From assembly GCA_903847585.1 (NCBI GenBank), contig CAINEC010000064.1, positions 10,225-74,224 of the forward strand: a stretch of 64,000 nt of DNA. Direction: 5' to 3'. The DNA comes from an uncultured Bacteroidota bacterium. GTDB lineage: Bacteria > Bacteroidota > Bacteroidia > AKYH767-A > OLB10. A program made the translations under genes and the position numbers. Position 1 is the first letter of the stretch, and each line of letters begins with the position of its first letter. The notes under the pieces were generated by a model. That model was not told where the DNA came from. It saw nothing but the letters and a program-made list of their open reading frames with translations, and ran no database searches. Of the stretch, positions 1-41,423 are shown one piece after another.

Positions 1-719
1 TCGACATTAACCACAGCTTCGATACTTTCTTTGTTTGCAATGATTGCTACAACTTCTCCCCTACGAACATAGTCGCCTTTGTTTTTGAACTTCTTAATAA
101 TTGTTCCCGCTTGCAACGATTGAATTTTATTATATTCGCTTGCTACAAGACTATTTTGCAACTGACCTTTACTTAATACTTGTTGTTGTTTGGCTTGAAG
201 AAGAATGGCGTTGTACTGGTTTTTTAACGACAACCAATTGGCCATGGATGTCTTCTCAGCGAGTTGAGCATTTTCCATCGCTACTTTGGACGTACTTTGC
301 TGCGCATACAATATTTCATAGCGACGAGCTTGTAAAGAGTCCTGACGATATTTATTCTCTGCCGAGCGAATATTTTCTTTAATCTGCAAAAGAGCAGGAG
401 AATTGACAGAAACATTTTCATCGGCAATCTGAAGCTGATCTTTTGCTACTGCTGAATTTACTTCGTTCGATTGATTATCAATAGTGGCTAATAACTGTCC
501 CGCCTGTACGAAAACACCTTCTTCAATATTTGAGCTGATTAAAACACCTTCTGTTTGTGCAGTTACATTATAAGCATCTTTCCAATCAATGCTACCACTC
601 GCAAAAACCAGTTCTTCGATATCTTTTACCTGAGGTTTTACTGTCTCGTTACTGCAAGAAATAAAAGTTGAAATAAGAAACAGAATGAATACAGCTTTAC
701 AGCTCTTTTTACTAAACAT
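1..719 (-). CDS. Efflux RND/HlyD-family periplasmic adaptor subunit (3' end runs off the window)
   Basis: Not in the ORF track. Manual translation from ATG at 719 (MFSKKSCKAVFILFLISTFISCSNETVKPQVKDIEELVFASG...) stays open to the window edge. It shows a lipoprotein-like signal, a coiled-coil hairpin and a lipoyl-like half motif (AGTIIKKFKNKGDYVRRGEVVAII). Confidence 0.85.
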   Translation of the reverse strand, partial: MFSKKSCKAVFILFLISTFISCSNETVKPQVKDIEELVFASGSIDWKDAYNVTAQTEGVLISSNIEEGVFVQAGQLLATIDNQSNEVNSAVAKDQLQIADENVSVNSPALLQIKENIRSAENKYRQDSLQARRYEILYAQQSTSKVAMENAQLAEKTSMANWLSLKNQYNAILLQAKQQQVLSKGQLQNSLVASEYNKIQSLQAGTIIKKFKNKGDYVRRGEVVAIIANKESIEAVVNV

Positions 720-786
720 GATAAATCGCTTAAAAACGAATCAAAATTAAAGAATGTCGATATAACACAAAGTGATAAACCTCATT

Positions 787-1551
787 TTATTCAATGAATT
801 TTAAAACTTCGTTCAATAATTCCAACGGCTTTTCTGCATGCACCCAATGTCCTGCTCCCTCAATATTCACAAATTGTGCATTAGGATACCAGCTTTTGAT
901 TTCTGAAAAACGTGCATCTTCAATATAACCTGAATTACCTCCTTTCACAAAAAGCACTGGTGTATTTACTAAAACAGAGGGCCATGTTGCTGTTCCGACT
1001 TCTTCAATTTGCTCATTTAACGTTTTCAGATTAAAGCGCCAGTCCATCTGCTCAGGCGTTTTCCAATGTAAATTCTTCAACAAAAATTGCTTTGTACCAT
1101 AATCATCGATTGCCTCATTCATGATTTTCTCTGCTTCCGAGCGACGCGTAATCGTTGATAAATCGATAGAAAGCAAGGTGTCAATTATTTCACGATGATG
1201 AACAGGATACTGATAAGGAGCAATATCAATCACCACTGCTTTACTTACCAAATCAGGAAAAGAATTAATCAGCGAAAGCGTCATTTTACCTCCCATTGAA
1301 TGACCGATAACGACAGGCTGATGTAAATTCAAATCAGCAATCAGCTCTGCGACATCAGAAGCCATAGAAAAGTAATCATGCACCTCCTCATGTGGCGATA
1401 ATCCATGATTACGAAGATCAGCGGTAATTACCTGATACCCTTTTTCGGCTAGTTGTCGTGCAAAACTTTGCCAGTTATCGCTCATCCCAAAAAGGCCATG
1501 AAAAATCAAAACCGGCCTTCCCTCGCCATAAACTCTATAACTCAATTTCAT
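787..1551 (-). CDS. Alpha/beta-fold hydrolase (YbfF-like esterase)
   Basis: HGLFG oxyanion motif, GHSMGG nucleophile elbow, GAGHWVHAE catalytic His. Start moved to MKLSYRV (1551) because the upstream extension overlaps the divergent gene. Confidence 0.9.
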   Translation of the reverse strand: MKLSYRVYGEGRPVLIFHGLFGMSDNWQSFARQLAEKGYQVITADLRNHGLSPHEEVHDYFSMASDVAELIADLNLHQPVVIGHSMGGKMTLSLINSFPDLVSKAVVIDIAPYQYPVHHREIIDTLLSIDLSTITRRSEAEKIMNEAIDDYGTKQFLLKNLHWKTPEQMDWRFNLKTLNEQIEEVGTATWPSVLVNTPVLFVKGGNSGYIEDARFSEIKSWYPNAQFVNIEGAGHWVHAEKPLELLNEVLKFIE

Positions 1552-2094: not shown

Positions 2095-3359
2095 ACGTTT
2101 TTAAATTCGGAGGAGCCTCGGTAAAAGATGCAGCTGCAGTAAAAAATGCTGGAGAAATTCTTAAGTTGCATTCCAATGAGCAATTGGTTGTTGTCATTTC
2201 AGCAATGGGCAAAGTGACGAATGCACTTGAAAAAATTGTTGATGCTTATATCAATCAAACTGGAGAAGCAACTACTTTATTAGACGAATTAAAAAAATAT
2301 CATCTTGAAATTTTAAGCGGACTGTTTGCGGATAGTAAACACGAAGTATATAACAAGCTCAATAATTTTTTAGTCGAGATAGAATGGGTTTTAGAAGAAA
2401 CACCTCGTGAATATGATTTTGTTTACGATCAAATTGTTTCTTTTGGAGAACTGATTTCTACAACGATCGTAAGTGAATGGCTGAATGATAATGGAATTAC
2501 CAATCAGTGGTTAGATGTTCGTGATTGCTTAATCACTGATAATACTTATCGCGAAGGCAAAATCGATTGGGAAGTGAGCACTAACCTTTTTCAATCGCGA
2601 TTGAATGACATCTTCAAACAATCAAATATTGTCATCACGCAAGGATTTATTGGAAGCACCACCGAAAACTTTTCGATCACGTTAGGTCGTGAAGGATCTG
2701 ATTATACTGCAGCCATTATTGCGCATATTATGAATGCAGAATCAGTTACTATTTGGAAAGATGTACCAGGAGTTTTAAATGCAGATCCGAAGCAATTTAA
2801 AGATGCTCAAAAATTAATTCAGTTAAGTTACCAAGACGCAATTGAATTAGCTTATTACGGAGCTTCTGTTATTCATCCGAAGACCATCAAACCACTCGAG
2901 AATAAAAATATTCCACTGTATGTAAAATCGTTTTTAGAACCGGGTAGCAAAGGAACTGTTATCGGAAAGGATCTTGAAACAAAGCCGCTTATCCCTTCCT
3001 TCATTTTTAAATCGAATCAAGTATTAATCAGTATTGCGGCAAAAGATTTTTCCTTTATTGCAGAAGAAAATTTAAGTGAGATTTTTTCTGATTTTGCAAA
3101 TGCAGGAATAAAATTAAACCTGATGCAAAACTCTGCTATTAGTTTTTCTGTTTGTATTGATGACACTCCAAAAAAGGATTCCTTAATTGAAAAATTAAGA
3201 GCTAAATACAAAGTAAAATACAATTCAAGTTTGCAACTATACACCATCCGACATTATTATCCTTCAACAATTGAATCGTTAACTGTTGGAAAAGAAATAT
3301 TGCTGGAGCAAAGAAGTAGAACAACCGCACAATTAGTTACAAAAGACCTACCCAAATGA
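2091..3359 (+). CDS. lysC: Aspartate kinase
   Basis: VFKFGGASV, VISAMGK, LGREGSDY and GASVIHPKT motifs; ACT-like C-terminus. Confidence 0.93.
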   Translation: MNVFKFGGASVKDAAAVKNAGEILKLHSNEQLVVVISAMGKVTNALEKIVDAYINQTGEATTLLDELKKYHLEILSGLFADSKHEVYNKLNNFLVEIEWVLEETPREYDFVYDQIVSFGELISTTIVSEWLNDNGITNQWLDVRDCLITDNTYREGKIDWEVSTNLFQSRLNDIFKQSNIVITQGFIGSTTENFSITLGREGSDYTAAIIAHIMNAESVTIWKDVPGVLNADPKQFKDAQKLIQLSYQDAIELAYYGASVIHPKTIKPLENKNIPLYVKSFLEPGSKGTVIGKDLETKPLIPSFIFKSNQVLISIAAKDFSFIAEENLSEIFSDFANAGIKLNLMQNSAISFSVCIDDTPKKDSLIEKLRAKYKVKYNSSLQLYTIRHYYPSTIESLTVGKEILLEQRSRTTAQLVTKDLPK

Positions 3360-4450
3360 AAGATCCTCTTATAGAAAACAGACCCGCTAACAAAAGCAGC
3401 TTAATTATCTGGTTGTTTGTTGGTTGCTTCATGATATTTACAATGGTTGTTGTTGGCGGCATTACTCGTTTAACAGGATCAGGATTATCGATAACCGAAT
3501 GGAAAGTCGTGACAGGAGTTATTCCTCCACTAAGTCAAGCAGAATGGGAAAGTGAATTTTTCAAATACCAACAGATACCACAATTTCAATTAATCAACTC
3601 TAACTTTACATTAGACGATTTTAAATTTATTTATTTCTGGGAGTACATCCATCGGTTAATTGGCCGAACTATCGGACTCGTATTTTTATACGGTCTCATC
3701 ACTTATTACATGCGGGGTGTCATTTCTAAGGAACTAATGCCTAGATTAATATTCATGTTTGTTTTAGGTGGAATACAAGGTTTTTTAGGCTGGTATATGG
3801 TGAGCAGCGGACTAACAGAAAATGTGAGAGTAAGTCATATCAGATTAGCGATTCATTTAACATTTGCATTTATCACTTTCGGATACATATTTTGGGTAGC
3901 ACTTACGCAGTTGTTTCCTGTGAAGCATACTAACAACTACGCCTATACCCGATATAAAAAATACGGATGGACATTATTATTACTTGTGATTTTACAAGTA
4001 ATTTATGGGGCGTTTGTTGCGGGAACAAAAGCAGGTATGGTATACACTACATGGCCATTGATGGAAGGAGAATGGGTACCTGAATCAATTACCTACATGC
4101 TTCAAAAAGATGGCATCGGCAGTTTGATTAATAACCTTGCAAGTGTTCAATTCATTCATCGTTCTCTAGCCTATTTAATTTCTGTCATTGTAGTTTTGCT
4201 GATAGTAAAAGTATGGAAAGACAAACAGCTTGAAGTAGGCCAAAAGAATAGCGCCTACGTGCTAGGTGGATTAGTAATCGTTCAAATTGTACTAGGAATT
4301 TACACTTTGCTAAACGGTGTTCCTGTTGCGTTAGGTGTGATTCATCAAGCTACTGCCTTTTTTATATTCGCAACTACTATTTATTTTATTTATCGACTTG
4401 CTTATGCATCGATGAAAGAGAAAATTGTATTTGTTAACGACGAAGAATAA
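3356..4450 (+). CDS. ctaA: Heme A synthase (COX15/CtaA family)
   Basis: GGITRLTGSGLSITEW, EYIHRLIGR, QFIHR and GVIHQ motifs; polytopic membrane protein. Confidence 0.93.
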   Translation: MKDPLIENRPANKSSLIIWLFVGCFMIFTMVVVGGITRLTGSGLSITEWKVVTGVIPPLSQAEWESEFFKYQQIPQFQLINSNFTLDDFKFIYFWEYIHRLIGRTIGLVFLYGLITYYMRGVISKELMPRLIFMFVLGGIQGFLGWYMVSSGLTENVRVSHIRLAIHLTFAFITFGYIFWVALTQLFPVKHTNNYAYTRYKKYGWTLLLLVILQVIYGAFVAGTKAGMVYTTWPLMEGEWVPESITYMLQKDGIGSLINNLASVQFIHRSLAYLISVIVVLLIVKVWKDKQLEVGQKNSAYVLGGLVIVQIVLGIYTLLNGVPVALGVIHQATAFFIFATTIYFIYRLAYASMKEKIVFVNDEE

Positions 4451-5124: not shown

Positions 5125-7116
5125 ATGAAGAAGATTACTGCGTTGTTATTTTTAACGATTCTTACTGCTTTCGCAAGTATGGGACAATTGGTAGACCCTG
5201 TAAAATGGAGCTACCGCGTTGAACAAAAAGGACAAGAGGCTACTTTGATATTTAAAGCTACTGTCGACAAAGGATGGCATGTGTATTCTCAATTTATTCC
5301 TGATGGAGGACCCATCCCAACTTCATTTACGTTTACTCCTGATAACAATTTTACTTTGATTGGAAAGGTTTCGGAACCAAAAGGCGAAGAAATTTTCGAT
5401 TCAAACTTTGATATGAAATTAAAGTATTTCGAGAATACAGCAGAGTTTAAGCAAAAGATCAAACTAACCTCAAATAAAGCATTTAAACTGAAGGGGGTTG
5501 TTGAATCGATGGCTTGTAACGATAAAAACTGTACACCTCCGAATGCTGTTGATTTCGAATTTTCAATTACAGGTGATGCTTCAACTGAAGTAGTTAGTCC
5601 TGAAGCCCCTACTACCACTACAGAACCAGAATCGGCTAGTGTTACAACTACAACAGAAGTAACTACATCGAATTCTAAAATTCCTCTTCCTTCCAGCGAC
5701 TTAAGCAAATTAGAACCAGCCTGTAATAATGGTGGCTCTATAGAAGCAGAAGACAAAAGTTATTTAGGAATATTTATAGCGGGAATGTTAGGTGGATTCT
5801 TAGCATTGTTAACACCTTGCGTTTTCCCAATGATTCCTATGACCGTTAGCTTCTTCACGAAAAGAAGTCCAACACGCGCAAAGGGTATACGCAATGCCTT
5901 TATTTACGCACTTTCAATTATTTCGATTTATGTTACCATCGGATTTTTTGTTACAATCACCCTTGGATCAGATGCTTTAAATGACTTAGCAAGCGGTGCG
6001 TTTTTTAATCTTTTATTCTTTATAATTTTCCTCTTATTTGGACTTTCTTTCCTTGGAGCATTTGAAATCACCTTACCCAATTCATGGTTGAATAAAGCGG
6101 ACTCTGCCTCTGAAAAAGGGGGCTTGATAGGAATCTTCTTTATGGCCTTTACATTGAGTTTGGTCTCTTTCTCTTGTACAGGTCCTATTATCGGAACCTT
6201 ATTAGTAGAAGCAGCGAAAGGTTCTAGTTACTTAGGTCCTATTATGGGCATGACAGGATTTTCATTTGCGTTGGCAATTCCTTTTGCATTTTTTGCAGCA
6301 TTCCCAGGTTGGTTAAATTCATTACCTAAATCTGGAGGATGGCTCAATAGTGTAAAAGTCGTTTTTGGACTATTAGAATTAGCTTTAGCATTGAAATTTT
6401 TATCTGCTGTTGACTTAGCATATAATTGGAACATTTTACTACGAGAAAGGTACCTTGCAATTTGGATTTCAATATTCGGATTAATGTCATTGTATTTAAT
6501 TGGGAAAATAAAATTCTCTCACGATAGCGATTTGCCTTACATTAGCAGCGTAAGAATATTGTTTGCCATTATATCATTTTCATTTACATTTTATATGATA
6601 CCAGGCTTATGGGGAGCTCCCTTAAATATTATTACGGGATATTTACCGCCACAAACAAAACAAGAATGGAACCCAGAACCAGAGCATTTTAATAATTATG
6701 ACGAAGGTATGGCTTATGCAAAATCGATTGGCAAACCTGTTATGATTGACTTTACTGGATGGAGCTGTGTGAATTGCAGAAAGATGGAAAACACTGTTTG
6801 GAAAGATCCGAAAGTTAAGACGCATCTTTCAGAAGATTATGTCGTCATTTCATTATTTGTTGATGATAAAGCAGAATTACCTTCCAATGAACAATACGTA
6901 AGTAAGTTCAGCGGTAAGAAAATCAAGACGACTGGAAATAAATGGAGCGATTTGGAAGCTTCTGTTTTTAATAGAAATGTTCAACCTTACTATGTTTTAT
7001 TAGACAACGAAGGGAAAATGTTGGCAGAGCCAAGAAGTTATACTCCTAACGTTGAGGAATACACGAAGTTCTTAGAAGAAGGTTTGTGTAGGTTTAAAAT
7101 CAGAAACAACAAGTAA
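5125..7116 (+). CDS. dsbD: Thiol:disulfide interchange protein DsbD (N-terminal Ig-like, DsbD/CcdA membrane and thioredoxin domains)
   Basis: LTPCVFPMIP and SCTGPIIG membrane cysteines; DFTGWSCVNCRKME thioredoxin motif. Confidence 0.92.
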   Translation: MKKITALLFLTILTAFASMGQLVDPVKWSYRVEQKGQEATLIFKATVDKGWHVYSQFIPDGGPIPTSFTFTPDNNFTLIGKVSEPKGEEIFDSNFDMKLKYFENTAEFKQKIKLTSNKAFKLKGVVESMACNDKNCTPPNAVDFEFSITGDASTEVVSPEAPTTTTEPESASVTTTTEVTTSNSKIPLPSSDLSKLEPACNNGGSIEAEDKSYLGIFIAGMLGGFLALLTPCVFPMIPMTVSFFTKRSPTRAKGIRNAFIYALSIISIYVTIGFFVTITLGSDALNDLASGAFFNLLFFIIFLLFGLSFLGAFEITLPNSWLNKADSASEKGGLIGIFFMAFTLSLVSFSCTGPIIGTLLVEAAKGSSYLGPIMGMTGFSFALAIPFAFFAAFPGWLNSLPKSGGWLNSVKVVFGLLELALALKFLSAVDLAYNWNILLRERYLAIWISIFGLMSLYLIGKIKFSHDSDLPYISSVRILFAIISFSFTFYMIPGLWGAPLNIITGYLPPQTKQEWNPEPEHFNNYDEGMAYAKSIGKPVMIDFTGWSCVNCRKMENTVWKDPKVKTHLSEDYVVISLFVDDKAELPSNEQYVSKFSGKKIKTTGNKWSDLEASVFNRNVQPYYVLLDNEGKMLAEPRSYTPNVEEYTKFLEEGLCRFKIRNNK

Positions 7117-36126: not shown

Positions 36127-36672
36127 ATGTACGGATTAGTAAATCAAGCTATACAAGGCTTAGTAATTGATAATTTTGGTGAAGACAACTGGAAAGCAAT
36201 TAAGCAAAAGGCAAACGTAACAGAAGATTCTTTCCTAAGCAATGAAATCTATGATGATAGTATTACATTCAATTTAGCAGTTTCTGCCTCTGAAGTATTA
36301 AATATTCCTTTAGCAGATGTTCTTAAAACATTTGGTAAATATTGGATTATCAAAGTAGGCAACGAAAAATATGGTCCGTTGATGAAATCAGGTGGTGATA
36401 ACTTCATCGACTTTATCGTAAACCTTCCTAATTTCCATAGTCGTGTAATGCTTATTTACTCCGACATCAAACCACCCGAATTTATTGTAGAAAAAGTAAC
36501 AGACAAACAGTTGAAATTGCATTACTATTCTACTCGTCAAGGGTTAACAGATTTTATGTTTGGGTTAATACAAGGACTAGGTGAACTATATCAAACGCCA
36601 ATAGATATTAAATTAATTGCTGATCGCAGAAATGGTGATGAGCACGATATTTTTGAAATAGTTATTCTATAA
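36127..36672 (+). CDS. H-NOX (heme NO-binding) protein
   Basis: MYGLVN start, Y.D.IT, FG.YW, LPNFHSRV proximal His, PP.F, YYSTR (YxSxR) motif. Confidence 0.95.
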   Translation: MYGLVNQAIQGLVIDNFGEDNWKAIKQKANVTEDSFLSNEIYDDSITFNLAVSASEVLNIPLADVLKTFGKYWIIKVGNEKYGPLMKSGGDNFIDFIVNLPNFHSRVMLIYSDIKPPEFIVEKVTDKQLKLHYYSTRQGLTDFMFGLIQGLGELYQTPIDIKLIADRRNGDEHDIFEIVIL

Positions 36673-37826
36673 TGATTAGTACCACAGAGAGCAATTTACT
36701 TATCAGCAGATTGTTCCCATTCTACTTTTCACTTGATCAAGATTTAATAATTAAAGATGCGGGAATCAGTTTAAAAAAAATAATCGGCGACGATTGTATT
36801 GAGAGTGCATTCTCCGATTTTTTTACTTTTCTACGACCAGGCCTAGGAATCAAATACCATATCGATTCTATCAAGCAATACGAAAACCAGATTTTTATTT
36901 TGCAGGGCAAATCGCAATCATCCAACTTCAGAATGAAGGGACAGTTTATCGTTCATCAAGAAAACCGAACGTTACTATTTTGTGGTTCACCCTGGATTGT
37001 TTCTGAAAAAGATTTTGAAAGCTTAGGATTAAAAATTAAAGACTTTGCTTTGCATGATTCAACTATCGATATGATTCAGAATTTGCGTGTTCAACAAATG
37101 GCCGTTGAAGACTCCAATCATGTAAACAAAATGTTATTGGAAAAGAATGAGGAACTAAAAAAGACGAATGCTGAATTAGATCGTTTTGTCTATAGCGTTT
37201 CTCATGATTTACGTTCGCCATTATTATCAATCCACGGAGTAATCGATATTTTAAAACAGAAAGAATCCATTAGTGAAACAGGCAATCAATTGCTACAGAT
37301 GATTGTTAATTCCATCGATCGACTAGACAATTCGATCGTTGAAATTTTAGATTATAGTCGTAATGCACGCTTCGACGTAGAACATGTTGAGCTCGACTTA
37401 AACACCATTTTACAACAAATCACCACGGACTTACAACATCTCGCTCCAGTTAGATTTGACATACAATTTGAAACTTCTGCTATTGTTACTAGTGATAAAT
37501 TCCGATTGATAACTATTTTAAAAAACACGATAAGCAACGCTGTAAAATATCGCAAACAAAATGATACAGATTGCTTCGTAAATATCAAAGTAAGTAAAGA
37601 AGATAACTATACAATTATTCGAATAGAAGATAATGGTATTGGAATCAGCGAAAAAAGTTTACCGAAAATTTTCGATATGTTTTTTAGAGCTACTAGTAGT
37701 GTAGCAGGTACTGGTCTCGGACTTTATATCTGCAAAGAAATGATCACTAAGCTGGGCGGCGCAATCAACCTCGATTCAAAATTAGGGGAAGGAACTAAGG
37801 TTACAATTAAAATTCCTTCTAACTAA
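36672..37826 (+). CDS. Sensor histidine kinase with N-terminal HNOBA (sGC PAS-like) domain
   Basis: LFPFYFSLD.DL, MKGQF, LFCGSPW and GL.I.DFALHDS (HNOBA); H-box SHDLRSP, N-box NAVKY, DNGIGI, GTGLGL. Confidence 0.9.
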   Translation: MISTTESNLLISRLFPFYFSLDQDLIIKDAGISLKKIIGDDCIESAFSDFFTFLRPGLGIKYHIDSIKQYENQIFILQGKSQSSNFRMKGQFIVHQENRTLLFCGSPWIVSEKDFESLGLKIKDFALHDSTIDMIQNLRVQQMAVEDSNHVNKMLLEKNEELKKTNAELDRFVYSVSHDLRSPLLSIHGVIDILKQKESISETGNQLLQMIVNSIDRLDNSIVEILDYSRNARFDVEHVELDLNTILQQITTDLQHLAPVRFDIQFETSAIVTSDKFRLITILKNTISNAVKYRKQNDTDCFVNIKVSKEDNYTIIRIEDNGIGISEKSLPKIFDMFFRATSSVAGTGLGLYICKEMITKLGGAINLDSKLGEGTKVTIKIPSN

Positions 37827-38719
37827 TCTTTCTTCCAGATATTAATTGAGCGATCATCGCCTGCACTAATCAAAGTGTTATCGTCTATCCACAATAATGT
37901 ATTGACAGAATTTAAATGTCCATCATTTGAATGTTCAATACGCTGAATAACCTGATTCGTATTTGCATCCCAAATTTTTAATGTCTTATCACGACTAGCA
38001 GTAGCAAATAATTTTCTATCAAGCGAAAATCCGATTTTATAAATCGCATAATTGTGAGCAGGAATTGCATTCACAACCGTATAATCTTTTTTGTCAACCC
38101 ATCTTAAATGCGCATCTCTTCCACCGCAAAGTAAAATATCATCAGTGTAATGAATAATCGCATTAACAGAAAAACCTTGCTTCGATAGTTGATTACTATA
38201 GGTCACTTCCATCGTATCGTCATCAAAAACATAAAACATCCCTTCACCACAACCAACAAATGTTTTGTTTAGCTTTTCGTCAAAAAAAACAGAACGCAAT
38301 TTCATAGTAGAAATTTTTTGTTTGAAGATCAATGAATAATCTGCTGATGATAATACGGACAATACTCCGTCACCGCCTAATACATACACCTTCGATTTAC
38401 TTTTATTCTCAACGATAGAAAACACCCCTTTCTCATTTACTTTCAACAATCTCTTCTCCTGGTTGTTCGATAAATCGATGACATGAATTTCTCCTTTCGC
38501 CTGACCGATTAATAATTCATTTTTACCTTCCAGATAACATATTGAATAAATACTATCAGACGCTCTCGCAATTAAATTACCTTGTTCAGGTTGATCAATG
38601 TTCCATGATACCACTAAACGATCGCCAGATGCCGACAAAAATGATTTATCGCTTAATTTAATTAAATCATACACGCCACTTGTATGACCTAAACAACGAT
38701 TATGTAATTTGAATTGCAT
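37823..38719 (-). CDS. WD40-repeat beta-propeller protein
   Basis: GH...Y, SASGD, AHNYAIY, ATASRDKTLKIWD and SAGDDRSINIW repeats. Confidence 0.92.
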   Translation of the reverse strand: MQFKLHNRCLGHTSGVYDLIKLSDKSFLSASGDRLVVSWNIDQPEQGNLIARASDSIYSICYLEGKNELLIGQAKGEIHVIDLSNNQEKRLLKVNEKGVFSIVENKSKSKVYVLGGDGVLSVLSSADYSLIFKQKISTMKLRSVFFDEKLNKTFVGCGEGMFYVFDDDTMEVTYSNQLSKQGFSVNAIIHYTDDILLCGGRDAHLRWVDKKDYTVVNAIPAHNYAIYKIGFSLDRKLFATASRDKTLKIWDANTNQVIQRIEHSNDGHLNSVNTLLWIDDNTLISAGDDRSINIWKKD

Positions 38720-39105: not shown

Positions 39106-39552
39106 ATGACGACCTACACCCAAATCATTTACCAGATAGTTTTCGCGACGAAAAGACGACAGAAAACACTAAGCGCCGAAAATCGGCAACGGCTTTTCGC
39201 GTACATGGCAACTGTAATCAGAAACAAAAAATGCCTGCCTTATTGTATCAACGGTGTTGAAGACCACCTCCACATTGTATGCGACCTCCATCCTTCAGTT
39301 GCGTTAGCTTCATTGGTAAAAGACATTAAACTTTCAAGCACAATTTTTATAAAGGAAAACAAACTCTTTAAAAAATTTAATGGATGGCAATCGGGTTATG
39401 GAGCATTTACCTATACTATAGAGGAAAAGCCAAGGCTTATTCGCTACGTCGAGAATCAGGAAAATCATCATAAGAAAAAGAAATCCATAGAAGAACAAAG
39501 AGACTTTTTAATGGCTCATGAAGTGGAGTTTTATGAAAAATATTTTACCTAG
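39106..39552 (+). mobile_element. tnpA: Y1 HUH transposase (IS200/IS605 TnpA family, probably REP-associated RAYT/TnpA-REP type)
   Basis: Y.IVFATK.R, DHLHI (HUH), WQSGYGAFT, RYVENQE.HH (catalytic Tyr); no tnpB follows; REP-like array immediately upstream. Confidence 0.9.
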
Positions 39553-39668
39553 TTGCTAAAACTATTTATATGATAAACCATGAATAATAACCTTTCAATT
39601 GAATTTAATTTTTTCCGACAATACAGGTCAATCATAAAAATAAATTTGGTTATCATAAAAAATCGTTT

Positions 39669-39676
39669 TTACTTTG
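39669..39676 (+). promoter_or_regulatory. Probable -7 promoter element for the metK leader
   Basis: TTACTTTG, a variant also found 4 nt before radA and 7 nt before the SDR gene; it ends 4 nt before the GCATT core of the first aptamer's P1 strand. Confidence 0.55.
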
Positions 39677-39679
39677 CAT

Positions 39680-39776
39680 CGCATTCAGACATCATATGTA
39701 ATGTATGATACCAACCGAGCGGACGATGCAACGGTGGTAAAACGATGCGGACCAGGAGTCAAAAAAGCGCTTTGCA
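39680..39776 (+). promoter_or_regulatory. SAM riboswitch aptamer 1 (SAM-I/IV-type, lacking P4)
   Basis: P1 CGCAUU/GAUGCG; J1/2 CAGA; P2 UCAUAU/GUAUGA; P3 UACCAACC/GGUGGUA with AA/U pocket; P5 GAC-CAGGA-GUC; L3 GAGCG complementary to tail CGCUU; lies upstream of metK. Confidence 0.8.
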
Positions 39777-39843
39777 CAATAAACCCTCCCTCCTCTCGTT
39801 AATGTTACAGATTGCAGAGTACAATTTGTTCTTTATTTTTTAA

Positions 39844-39953
39844 TACATCAAGAATTATAGTTCCGACTATAATACCAACCGAGCGTATCCGCGCCACGGT
39901 GGTAAAGCGATGTGGACGTTCAGTCAAAATAAAACAGGATATCCACTTCGCTT
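39844..39953 (+). promoter_or_regulatory. SAM riboswitch aptamer 2 (SAM-I/IV-type, lacking P4)
   Basis: P1 UACAUC/GAUGUG; J1/2 AAGA; P2 UUAUAGU/ACUAUAA; P3 UACCAACC/GGUGGUA; P5 GAC-GUUCA-GUC; L3 GUAUCC complementary to tail GGAUAU (pseudoknot). Confidence 0.85.
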
Positions 39954-40004
39954 CTTTTTGATGTATGTATTGAGTTAGAAATTAAACTTTAATTCCATCA
40001 TACT

Positions 40005-41423
40005 ATGAAACAATTCGATTATTCGTTTACGAGCGAATCGGTGTCGGCAGGACACCCAGACAAAGTGGCTGATCAAATTTCAGACGCTATTCTTGATGCT
40101 TACTTAGCACAAGACCCGCATGCTAAAGTAGCCTGCGAATGTTTAATTACAACCAATCATTTAACGATTGCTGGTGAGGTGACTTCTACCGCTATTGTAG
40201 ATCCTATTGCGATTGCAAAAGAAGTATTGGAGCGCATCGGTTATAATGATTCAGCATCAGGTTTTAATTGGAAAACTGCATTCTATCAAAATTTATTACA
40301 TCAACAAAGTCGTGAAATTAACGATAGCGTTGCCGATGGAGGTGCAGGTGATCAAGGATTAATGTTTGGCTATGCAACATCCGAAGGCCCGAACTTTATG
40401 CCTTTACCTATCTGGCTTGCTCATCAGCTAATGCGCAAACATCAGGAACTTCGCGATAGTGGTAAATATCCATTCTTACTTCCTGATGCTAAATCGCAAG
40501 TCACAGTTGATTACAATATCAATACACCAGTAGGTATTAGCAAAGTTGTTTTATCCGCACAACATACTCCTGATATCAAGCAAGAAGACTTACGCAAGTT
40601 TATCATCGCTGAAATCATTGAACCTGTAATTGCAAATTATAAAGGTGAATCCGAGACTGAATATTTAATCAATCCTTCTGGAAGTTTTACTATTGGTGGC
40701 CCGCATGGTGATACTGGTTTAACAGGAAGAAAAATTATTGTGGATACTTATGGAGGTAAATGTCCACATGGAGGTGGTGCCTTCTCTGGTAAAGACCCAA
40801 GCAAAGTAGATCGTTCTGCTGCATATATGGCACGCTACATAGCAAAAACGTTAGTAGCCAACGGATATGCGAAAGAATGTACAATTCAACTAGCCTATGC
40901 TATTGGACATGACCAACCGCTTTCGGTTCACGTTAATACACATGGAACAGGTAACCAACATCCAGATACGCGGTTAGCCCTTGCCGTTAGAGCAGTATTT
41001 GATTTGAATCCGAACGGAATTATCAAAGAACTCGGACTAAAACAACCTATCTATAGTCAAACTGCTATCAATGGACATTTCGGAAATTTAGATTTCCCAT
41101 GGGAGAAAGTATCGTCTGAAAAAGCAAATCGCCTACGTGAATATTTTGAAACTGGCTACGGAACAGAGTTGCGAAATAAGGAATGGAAAAAACTTTTGGC
41201 CGCATCTAGCTTAGATAAACTAATTGAAAATTTTAATCGCGAAGTAAGAGTTCCTGCATCCAGCAGCGCACGATTTGAATATATCATTTTACTGGTTGAT
41301 GAAATCAAAAACAGAGACATTGATATTTCATGTATTACAGGCGAAAACAATTCGATTCGTTTAAGTAAGAAAGTAAAAATTGTAAATAACACCTTAGTAT
41401 ATTCAGAAGAAAATAATTTGTAA
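40005..41423 (+). CDS. metK: S-adenosylmethionine synthetase with ~90-aa C-terminal extension
   Basis: FTSESV..GHPDK, GAGDQGLMFG, PD.KSQV, GDTGLTGRKII.DTYGG, GGGAFSGKDPSKVDRSAAY and FPWEK motifs, followed by extra sequence. Confidence 0.96.
   Translation: MKQFDYSFTSESVSAGHPDKVADQISDAILDAYLAQDPHAKVACECLITTNHLTIAGEVTSTAIVDPIAIAKEVLERIGYNDSASGFNWKTAFYQNLLHQQSREINDSVADGGAGDQGLMFGYATSEGPNFMPLPIWLAHQLMRKHQELRDSGKYPFLLPDAKSQVTVDYNINTPVGISKVVLSAQHTPDIKQEDLRKFIIAEIIEPVIANYKGESETEYLINPSGSFTIGGPHGDTGLTGRKIIVDTYGGKCPHGGGAFSGKDPSKVDRSAAYMARYIAKTLVANGYAKECTIQLAYAIGHDQPLSVHVNTHGTGNQHPDTRLALAVRAVFDLNPNGIIKELGLKQPIYSQTAINGHFGNLDFPWEKVSSEKANRLREYFETGYGTELRNKEWKKLLAASSLDKLIENFNREVRVPASSSARFEYIILLVDEIKNRDIDISCITGENNSIRLSKKVKIVNNTLVYSEENNL

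Follow-up and report, generated by a model that had tools for sequence, protein, structure and literature searches.

Tandem SAM-I/IV riboswitches upstream of metK in an uncultured Bacteroidota bacterium: a conserved leader with predicted control at two levels

The DNA analyzed here, hereafter the window, is a 64,000-nucleotide (nt) stretch from an uncultured freshwater Bacteroidota bacterium (contig CAINEC010000064.1), and all coordinates below are positions within it. The leader region at 39640-40010, located between an IS200-like open reading frame (ORF; 39106-39552) and a metK ORF of 472 amino acids (aa), contains two consecutive aptamers predicted to bind S-adenosylmethionine (SAM), on the same strand, 164 nt apart and within one leader. 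This tandem SAM-I/IV leader before metK is a real and strongly conserved feature, well beyond chance. Its principal components are as follows.

39676..39776, + strand: aptamer 1, SAM-I/IV type; core at 39681-39760, with a U.G wobble in P1 at the junction and CAGA as J1/2
39840..39941, + strand: aptamer 2, SAM-I/IV type; consensus J1/2 AAGA and a pseudoknot between L3 and the tail
40005..41423, + strand: metK, 472 aa, with PF00438, PF02772 and PF02773; the synthetase core corresponds to residues 6-368

The original prediction had placed two SAM-I superfamily units on the forward strand at this site, with metK as the next gene, and both parts of it hold. With Rfam cmscan, aptamer 2 (39840-39941, +) matches SAM-I/IV (RF01725) with 53.5 bits (E 5.8e-06) and aptamer 1 (39676-39776, +) with 42.9 bits (E 0.0013), in each case over the full length of the model (1-99 of 99) and above its gathering score of 41.1. 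At the gathering thresholds of Rfam 15, only three matches are found in the whole 64-kb window, namely these two and a distant tRNA, and a permissive local rescan of the window with Rfam models added nothing beyond noise. The product of the next gene carries the N-terminal, central and C-terminal S-adenosylmethionine synthetase domains of Pfam (E 1e-37 to 6e-63). The two units share the blocks ATACCAACCGAGCG...ACGGTGGTAAA.CGATG.GGAC.....GTCAAAA, their pairwise alignment has 78% column identity, and the minimum free energy fold of each unit alone contains P1, P2, P3 and P5. Both are members of the SAM-I/IV family, and from their sequences both are predicted to bind SAM.

Relatives of the locus were collected in two ways. 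A MetK protein search with one genome per species gave five close loci, all in metagenome-assembled genomes of freshwater Bacteroidota, and a degenerate core pattern retrieved 113 metagenomic stretches; 106 distinct aptamers were aligned, a covariance model of our own (R1) was built, and all loci (L numbers below) were searched. With R1, aptamers 1 and 2 score 69.0 and 84.2 bits, respectively. The helices of the two window aptamers, all checked base by base, are given below.

39681-85/39744-48, + strand: aptamer 1 P1, GCAUU/GAUGC, with the wobble U85.G44
39691-97/39703-09, + strand: aptamer 1 P2, preceded by J1/2 CAGAC
39710-12/39736-38 and 39715-17/39732-34, + strand: aptamer 1 P3
39750-52/39758-60, + strand: aptamer 1 P5
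39845-49/39909-13, + strand: aptamer 2 P1, ACAUC/GAUGU
39854-61/39866-73, + strand: aptamer 2 P2, preceded by J1/2 AAGA
39874-76/39901-03 and 39879-81/39897-99, + strand: aptamer 2 P3
39915-17/39923-25, + strand: aptamer 2 P5

The SAM-I-type binding core anticipated from the letters, that is P1 AU(C)/GAU, the GA of J1/2 and the asymmetric internal loop CAACC/GGUG of P3, is present in both aptamers, and the 106 related aptamers show little or no variation in CCAACC, GGUGGU, CGAUG and the GA of J1/2. P2 is a continuous stem of 7 base pairs (bp) in aptamer 1 and 8 bp in aptamer 2, devoid of an internal loop or K-turn. The expected P5 hairpin, a GAC/GUC stem of three pairs followed by AAAA, is found in each unit at 39750-60 and 39915-25, and GGAC...GUCAAA is invariant in the group. 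As proposed, P1 and P2 differ between the copies while keeping their pairing: the outer P1 pair, G-C in aptamer 1, is A-U in aptamer 2, and the two P2 sequences are wholly different and both pair. Among the 106 aligned aptamers, some sequences have changes on both sides of a pair that leave it paired; this applies to the outer pair of P1, to three pairs of P2 and to the inner pair of P5. P4 is indeed absent from both units; the linker said to replace it is 5 nt long (AAAAC in aptamer 1, AAAGC in aptamer 2) rather than 4.

These features agree with the SAM-I/IV aptamer as described by Weinberg et al. 2010 (PMC2864571), which has a simple P2, no P4 and a short P3-to-P1 linker. The window aptamers share with RF01725 the SAM-I-like core, the simple P2, the lack of P4 in the Rfam consensus, a P5 located 3' of P1 and an A-rich tail. 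They differ from it by a very short P1 (only 4-5 bp) and, for aptamer 1, by the U.G closing pair and the lack of detectable L3:tail complementarity. The crystallized SAM-I/IV construct (4L81; sequence quoted in PMC5393176) has an additional small hairpin between P3 and P1, which is absent from both window aptamers.

A tail complementary to L3 had been claimed for each unit, and this is supported for aptamer 2 only. There, UAUCC of L3 (39886-90) pairs with GGAUA of the tail (39937-41) over 5 bp (-7.3 kcal/mol, z -2.2 versus shuffled tails), and both strands are invariant in relatives. In aptamer 1, the best L3:tail duplex (-6.3 kcal/mol, z 0.1) is no better than with shuffled tails; the candidates, AGCG 39718-21 with CGCU 39768-71 and GACGA 39722-26 with UCGUU 39797-801, amount to only 4-5 bp. 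A survey of 94 aptamers (L001-L119 and the window) shows the classical L3:tail complementarity with z < -2 in only about 9%, and complementarity between the P5 loop and the tail in about 31%, such as UUACA with UGUAA or UUUCA with UGAAA. These sequence matches hint at a different tertiary or switching contact in many Bacteroidota SAM-I/IV members.

The wobble noted in P1 of aptamer 1 is real (U85.G44, where aptamer 2 has C-G) and marks a subtype. It occurs in nine of the 106 aligned aptamers, all of them aptamer 1 copies of this tandem family, and also, outside this alignment, in the upstream aptamers of a second tandem family. The subtype is recognized by GCAUUCAGA with the U.G wobble and by a tail ending in CACAAUAA...CUCUCGUU. 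The replacement of C-G by a conserved U.G beside the A-U pairs of P1, together with the undetectable pseudoknot and the score barely above the Rfam threshold, could be taken to mean that aptamer 1 senses another ligand, for example S-adenosylhomocysteine (SAH) or another analogue, which would turn the leader into a two-input gate; the occurrence of the subtype upstream in the second tandem, before an unrelated gene, points the same way. We find this quite improbable: aptamer 1 keeps all invariant core positions (CCAACC, GGUGGU, CGAUG, GGAC...GUC), its CAGA lies within the J1/2 variation of the group and is AAGA in L034 and L050, and no specific alternative ligand is indicated.

The tandem leader was found in nine contigs (the window, L001-L005, L023, L034 and L050), with the aptamers spaced by 164-165 nt, and the MetK proteins of the genome loci that carry it are 78-97% identical. 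All five close MetK loci have both aptamers, both above the Rfam threshold in four of them; the upstream one of L004 falls just below, but reaches 65.8 bits with R1. Over the 324 nt between P1 of aptamer 1 and the start codon, the nine leaders share 94-99% identity with the window. At the third-codon positions of metK, by contrast, identity falls to 57-67% in the four most divergent members, which indicates that the whole leader is under strong purifying selection. Variation is confined to 49 of 378 columns. The linker is the most variable part (14 of 66 columns), and the six varying columns of each aptamer fall in loops or junctions or are compatible with pairing. This last observation makes it extremely unlikely that aptamer 1 is a decaying relic and aptamer 2 the only working unit. 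Such a relic might be suspected from the marginal score of aptamer 1 (42.9 versus 41.1), which ranges from 41.9 to 45.9 in relatives and drops below threshold in L004, and from its P1 of 4-5 bp; six variable columns in about 100 nt, all sparing or preserving pairing, stand against about 40% divergence at the synonymous sites of the relatives' metK.

The pair does not stem from a recent local duplication. Aptamers 1 and 2 are 72% identical to each other and 77-80% identical to unrelated single aptamers, and as they are no closer to each other than to such singles, the pair is old. About 100 aptamers in the retrieved set are single. The second tandem SAM-I/IV family, found in L062 (- strand, 969..560), L087 (- strand, 595..286) and L077 (+ strand, 2298..2607) and degenerate in L053, precedes an unrelated 107-aa ORF, and its upstream aptamer is of the U.G-wobble subtype, like aptamer 1. 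Its relatives L030, L069 and L100 carry the downstream aptamer only, so that the upstream unit of this second tandem behaves as an add-on module. L060 contains two nearly identical single SAM-I/IV riboswitches on the - strand (5612-5722 and 3444-3554), 2.2 kb apart and presumably belonging to separate genes.

Downstream of aptamer 2, the predicted folds contain a set of mutually exclusive pairings that reach into metK. The segments involved are the following.

39942..39953, + strand: segment UCCACUUCGCUU, partner of AAGCGAUGUGGA (39905-16, comprising J3/1, the 3' strand of P1 and the 5' strand of P5) in the ligand-free helix H4 (-17.3 kcal/mol)
39955..39967, + strand: switching element UUUUUGAUGUAUG, predicted to pair either with the P1 5' strand and J1/2 of aptamer 2 (H0, ligand-free) or with the metK start region 39999-40010 (ligand-bound)
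39957..40010, + strand: predicted sequestering hairpin (-10.2 kcal/mol) containing the metK AUG at 40005-07
40023..40076, + strand: metK codons 7-24, nearly frozen at synonymous sites; GAGCGAA (40031-37) and AAGUGG (40063-68) are complementary to 39942-53

The unconstrained fold corresponds to a four-way alternative in which both P1 strands of aptamer 2 are captured by downstream complements: AUACAUCAAGAA (39843-54) by UUUUUGAUGUAU (39955-66) in H0, and the 3' strand in H4. The probability of P1 drops from 0.99 to 0.0 once position 39953 has been transcribed, with H4 replacing P1. When aptamer 2 is locked, 39942-53 is predicted to pair instead with the metK coding region at 40031-37 and 40063-68. 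Substitutions in this platform are few and either unpaired in the model or compatible with pairing: the sole change of 39942-53 in relatives, C39944 to U, keeps its pair as G.U, G40031 to A also keeps its pair, and the varying positions 39968, 39986 and 39996 are unpaired in the sequestering hairpin. A local hairpin, GGUGUC/GACACC (40039-55), lies inside the nearly frozen metK stretch. By computation, the same platform layout recurs in about 46 related single riboswitches.

Aptamer 2 is most likely a translational OFF switch in which the ligand-free helices of the model act as anti-sequestors. Bacteroidota initiate translation on unstructured leaders without a Shine-Dalgarno sequence, so that closing the start region would matter. 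The relay is supported by the generality of the complement to the P1 5' strand and J1/2 (median z -2.85, with 59% below -2, n = 102 related aptamers), by its overlap with the start codon and by the nearly frozen metK codons. Of 46 non-redundant loci, 36 have the best complement of the 3' part of the switching element at a place that overlaps positions -12 to +3 of the start codon, versus 20.3 expected by random placement, in a test whose P value is inflated by the use of related sequences. Codons 7-24 show 0-2 synonymous differences per 18 codons versus 23-43% elsewhere in the codon alignment (Fisher p 0.002-0.017 per relative), a pattern that close to a start codon can also arise from other causes. 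Both caveats weigh against the proposed relay, as does an energy test of the switching element versus the following 70 nt, which is not significant on its own (median z -0.5); of the two tests, the positional one was informative. A downstream complement to the P1 3'/P5 5' strand is not a general feature of the related aptamers (median z 0.22).

A further adverse point is the shape of H4 itself, a strong hairpin followed by CUUUUU, which is the geometry of a ligand-free terminator with ON logic. Aptamer 2 would then be a transcriptional ON switch, H4 (39905-53) and CUUUUU terminating transcription in the absence of SAM, and the tandem would be OFF then ON, with expression at intermediate SAM only. 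The stability of H4 (-17.3 kcal/mol), its G-C-rich base, the U5 directly after it and its displacement of P1 once 39953 is transcribed all fit this scheme, and its 5' arm overlaps the P1 3' strand of aptamer 2. Ligand-activated terminator riboswitches, such as the adenine-responsive pbuE leader, have a terminator whose 5' arm overlaps the P1 3' strand. In the second tandem family, the upstream aptamer also has AAACGA:UCGUUU followed by a U-run. We nonetheless judge an ON switch unlikely. Positive feedback on SAM synthetase is physiologically implausible, and we know of no SAM riboswitch class that acts as an ON switch. Moreover, the U-run is also explained as the complement of the J1/2 AAGAA in H0, it is interrupted in L023 (39959 T to A), and the equivalent helix is not followed by a U-run in L092, which contains the nearest relative of aptamer 2, or in most single aptamers; conservation of the distal element 39960-67 is sensible only if ligand-free transcripts pass the U-run.

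The invariant tail of aptamer 1 (39754-82) is followed by a pyrimidine tract, a variable spacer and a hairpin, T1.

39784..39800, + strand: C/U-rich tract CCCUCCCUCCUCUCGUU, which in predicted folds pairs with the P1 3' and P5 5' strands of aptamer 1 (39741-58) in a ligand-free alternative helix (-11.6 kcal/mol)
39807..39841, + strand: hairpin T1 and U-run, a putative attenuator or pause site; ACAGAUUG (39807-14) pairs with CAAUUUGU (39822-29) around a 7-nt loop (-4.9 kcal/mol), followed by the U-run UCUUUAUUUUUU (39830-41)

T1 appears to be a selected hairpin, because its stem is largely invariant and its loop hypervariable. Its outermost pair, 39807:39829, persists as G.U in L003 but is lost in L034 and L050. 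Apart from this pair and a pair-compatible G to A at 39810, the stem positions 39808-14 and 39822-29 do not vary, while loop positions 39816 and 39819 each show three different bases. T1 contains too few G-C pairs to be flagged by a simple terminator scan. Once freed, the 5' strand of P1 in aptamer 1 can pair with 39810-15 and so block T1, in a state that is nearly iso-energetic with the T1 state (-31.9 versus -32.9 kcal/mol); L004 retains this pairing with a shift in register. It is therefore plausible that aptamer 1 attenuates transcription, through a putative coupling to T1. Three observations speak against such control: T1, at -4.9 kcal/mol and with two G-C pairs, is weak and is present in all modelled states; the antiterminator pairing is poorly kept in L034; and U39791, which is G or C in L005, L034 and L050, breaks one pair of the alternative helix in those loci.

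That T1 forms irrespective of the state of aptamer 1 leaves a modest chance that both units work but the first not via T1. SAM could expose the C-rich, G-poor tract at 39784-39800 to Rho, or the two units could act at the same level as a pseudo-cooperative pair. The unpaired probability of the tract rises from 0.25 in the free state to 0.57-0.65 with aptamer 1 locked, and similar pyrimidine tracts follow many related aptamers. A role of Rho is purely conjectural, however, the pairing of the tract is not strictly conserved, and the combination of a mostly invariant T1 stem (its outermost pair lost in L034 and L050) with a hypervariable loop indicates that the hairpin itself is selected.

Other readings of the linker were discarded. 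The ATG in each P1 3' strand opens a small ORF (39745-39843 and 39910-39978), and substitutions in the linker first seemed biased toward third positions, as for a leader peptide; frameshifting insertions in L034 and L050 (after 39800) and in L003 (after 39835), the loss of the stop in L005 and the absence of the ATG at 39802 from L003 and L004 rule this out, and the apparent bias is due to the T1 hairpin. For aptamer 1, a helix between CAUU (39682-85) and AAUG (39801-04) is part of the minimum-energy fold, but 39801-05 is highly variable among relatives. An antiterminator between CUUUGCA (39770-76, or its copy in the putative promoter, 39672-78) and UGCAGAG (39813-19) appears in folds, but requires the freely varying T1 loop positions 39816 and 39819. 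The stretch between the aptamers contains no conserved ORF, and reading the linker sequence reveals no -33/-7 promoter pair in it.

The linker also bears on a comparison with the glycine riboswitch, in which two similar, adjacent aptamers for the same ligand share one expression platform and act cooperatively; the pair before metK might likewise be a single cooperative sensor. The aptamers share one transcript, and the whole leader is conserved, linker included. Here, however, the linker between them measures 63 nt and contains a conserved hairpin and a U-run of its own, each aptamer has its own downstream complements and alternative pairings, the linker is the most variable part of the leader (14 of 66 columns), and the platform of aptamer 2 is that of single aptamers. 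We consequently regard a single cooperative sensor as very unlikely.

Based on the above, we propose, with moderate confidence and on the strength of modelled folds, that the leader carries two complete SAM-I/IV riboswitches on one transcript, both OFF upon SAM binding and acting at two levels, transcription and translation. In the absence of SAM, the P1 strands of aptamer 2 would be captured by H4 (39905-16/39942-53) and H0 (39843-54/39955-66), leaving the start region open. SAM binding would lock P1, P5 and the pseudoknot of aptamer 2, and the released 39942-67 could then close the initiation region by pairing with codons 9-22 and across the start codon (39999-40010). For aptamer 1, where our inference is weaker, SAM would keep the P1 5' strand away from 39810-15, so that T1 and its U-run may attenuate transcription before aptamer 2 is made. 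Two SAM-responsive checkpoints in series would provide a steeper, two-level shut-off of SAM synthetase, of the "bi-mechanism" tandem type. There is a small chance that the aptamers are instead non-redundant, either because the U.G subtype differs in ligand or affinity or because the downstream unit works in the opposite direction, giving a two-threshold or two-input function; if so, the leader would compute a SAM band-pass or a SAM/SAH comparison and not a simple steeper OFF.

The proposed arrangement resembles the published bi-mechanism tandem of H-type pseudoknot aptamers, in which a same-ligand pair also occupies the leader of a sulfur/SAM-metabolism gene, the first aptamer preceding a stem and U-run and the second controlling translation initiation. 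It differs from it in aptamer class, in the coupling of aptamer 1 to a terminator, which here is predicted only, and in the target of the second switch, which hides the ribosome-binding site there and the start codon with its flanks here; no purine-rich Shine-Dalgarno-like stretch is evident upstream of the metK AUG. Two complete same-ligand riboswitches in series are also what defines the likeness to pseudo-cooperative tandems, the term given to same-class tandems, from which a steeper response is expected, in a 2022 survey (PMC9481103). That survey lists same-class tandems of SAM-I (164), SAM-II (44), TPP and others, SAM-II/SAM-V pairs (149), as well as SAM-II with SAM-I/IV in either order (7 and 2); a pair of two SAM-I/IV units is absent from its tables and text. 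A 2025 survey treats all SAM classes together and does not mention Bacteroidota or metK. On the evidence of these surveys, the SAM-I/IV pair is an unreported combination within the known class of same-ligand tandems, not a new principle.

Upstream of aptamer 1, the sequence suggests where the transcript begins.

39645..39676, + strand: putative Bacteroidota-type promoter, with a -33 TTTG (39645-48), a 20-nt spacer and a -7 box TTACTTTG (39669-76), as read from the sequence

A TAnnTTTG box, the -7 element of Bacteroidota promoters in the literature on Bacteroides, is found about 6 nt before P1 in most related single aptamers. From the putative promoter, transcription would begin a few bases 5' of P1 in aptamer 1, and this favors Rfam's P1 register, 39681-85/39744-48, over the alternative GCAUCG/CGAUGC (39676-81/39743-48). 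The 5' strand of the latter is also unconserved, at 39678-81, and lies at or before the likely start; this register was rejected. Just 5' of the putative promoter, TTTTTCCGACAATACAGGTCA (39610-39630) does not vary in any relative, even where the IS200-like gene is lacking, and could serve as a UP-like promoter element or as a site bound by a regulator. The IS200-like (Y1 transposase) ORF of 148 aa directly upstream of the leader is syntenic and 79-99% identical in L001, L003, L004, L005 and L023 and is missing from L002, L034 and L050; it resembles a resident single-copy gene more than a recent insertion. Further upstream, a histidine kinase with a HNOBA domain (36672-37826) and a bacterial WD40 beta-propeller protein (37823-38719, - strand) are syntenic in relatives.

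The MetK protein itself has an unusual end. Beyond the synthetase core, a C-terminal extension of about 100 aa (41118-41420, residues ~372-472) has no assigned family and contains a rare domain of about 75 aa. It is related to a stand-alone 86-aa ORF located directly after a single SAM-I/IV aptamer in L092 (38% identity, E 7e-13) and to ORFs after aptamers in the L019 group and in L084; the homologues lie at 664-921 and 1995-2270 in L092, 4539-4817 (- strand) in L019 and 6811-7059 in L084. A word-indexed protein search with the extension gave no matches, and an exhaustive HMMER search of 1.84 billion representative proteins gave only 21 relatives, mostly of 77-135 aa. They share the motif FNREVG..SAR..L..E...R..D.S and belong to no Pfam family; assignment of the MetK extension to DUF7516 was rejected (19 bits versus a cut-off of 27, the match not being shared by homologues). 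The fusion of an apparently SAM-controlled small protein to SAM synthetase suggests a SAM-related role of the extension domain. More generally, most of the retrieved freshwater Bacteroidota SAM-I/IV aptamers (L007-L119, for example L038, L008, L010, L013, L036 and L053) precede small ORFs without a Pfam family and not classic methionine or SAM genes. Recurring ORF families after the aptamers have 18, 9, 7 and 5 members. Among nine proteins encoded after related aptamers, eight have no family in Pfam, the ninth matching AAA-ATPase families.

With tandem riboswitches, bacteria can assemble simple parts into responses that are steeper or act at several levels. The metK leader adds to these a SAM-I/IV pair from Bacteroidota, a phylum in which translation does not depend on Shine-Dalgarno pairing and riboswitch expression platforms are for that reason poorly understood. 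The modelled pairings, together with their recurrence among related sequences, suggest a general four-segment relay by which these aptamers may open or close the start-codon region. Lastly, a group of small proteins that appear to be under SAM control, including the one fused to MetK, emerges from the comparative set.

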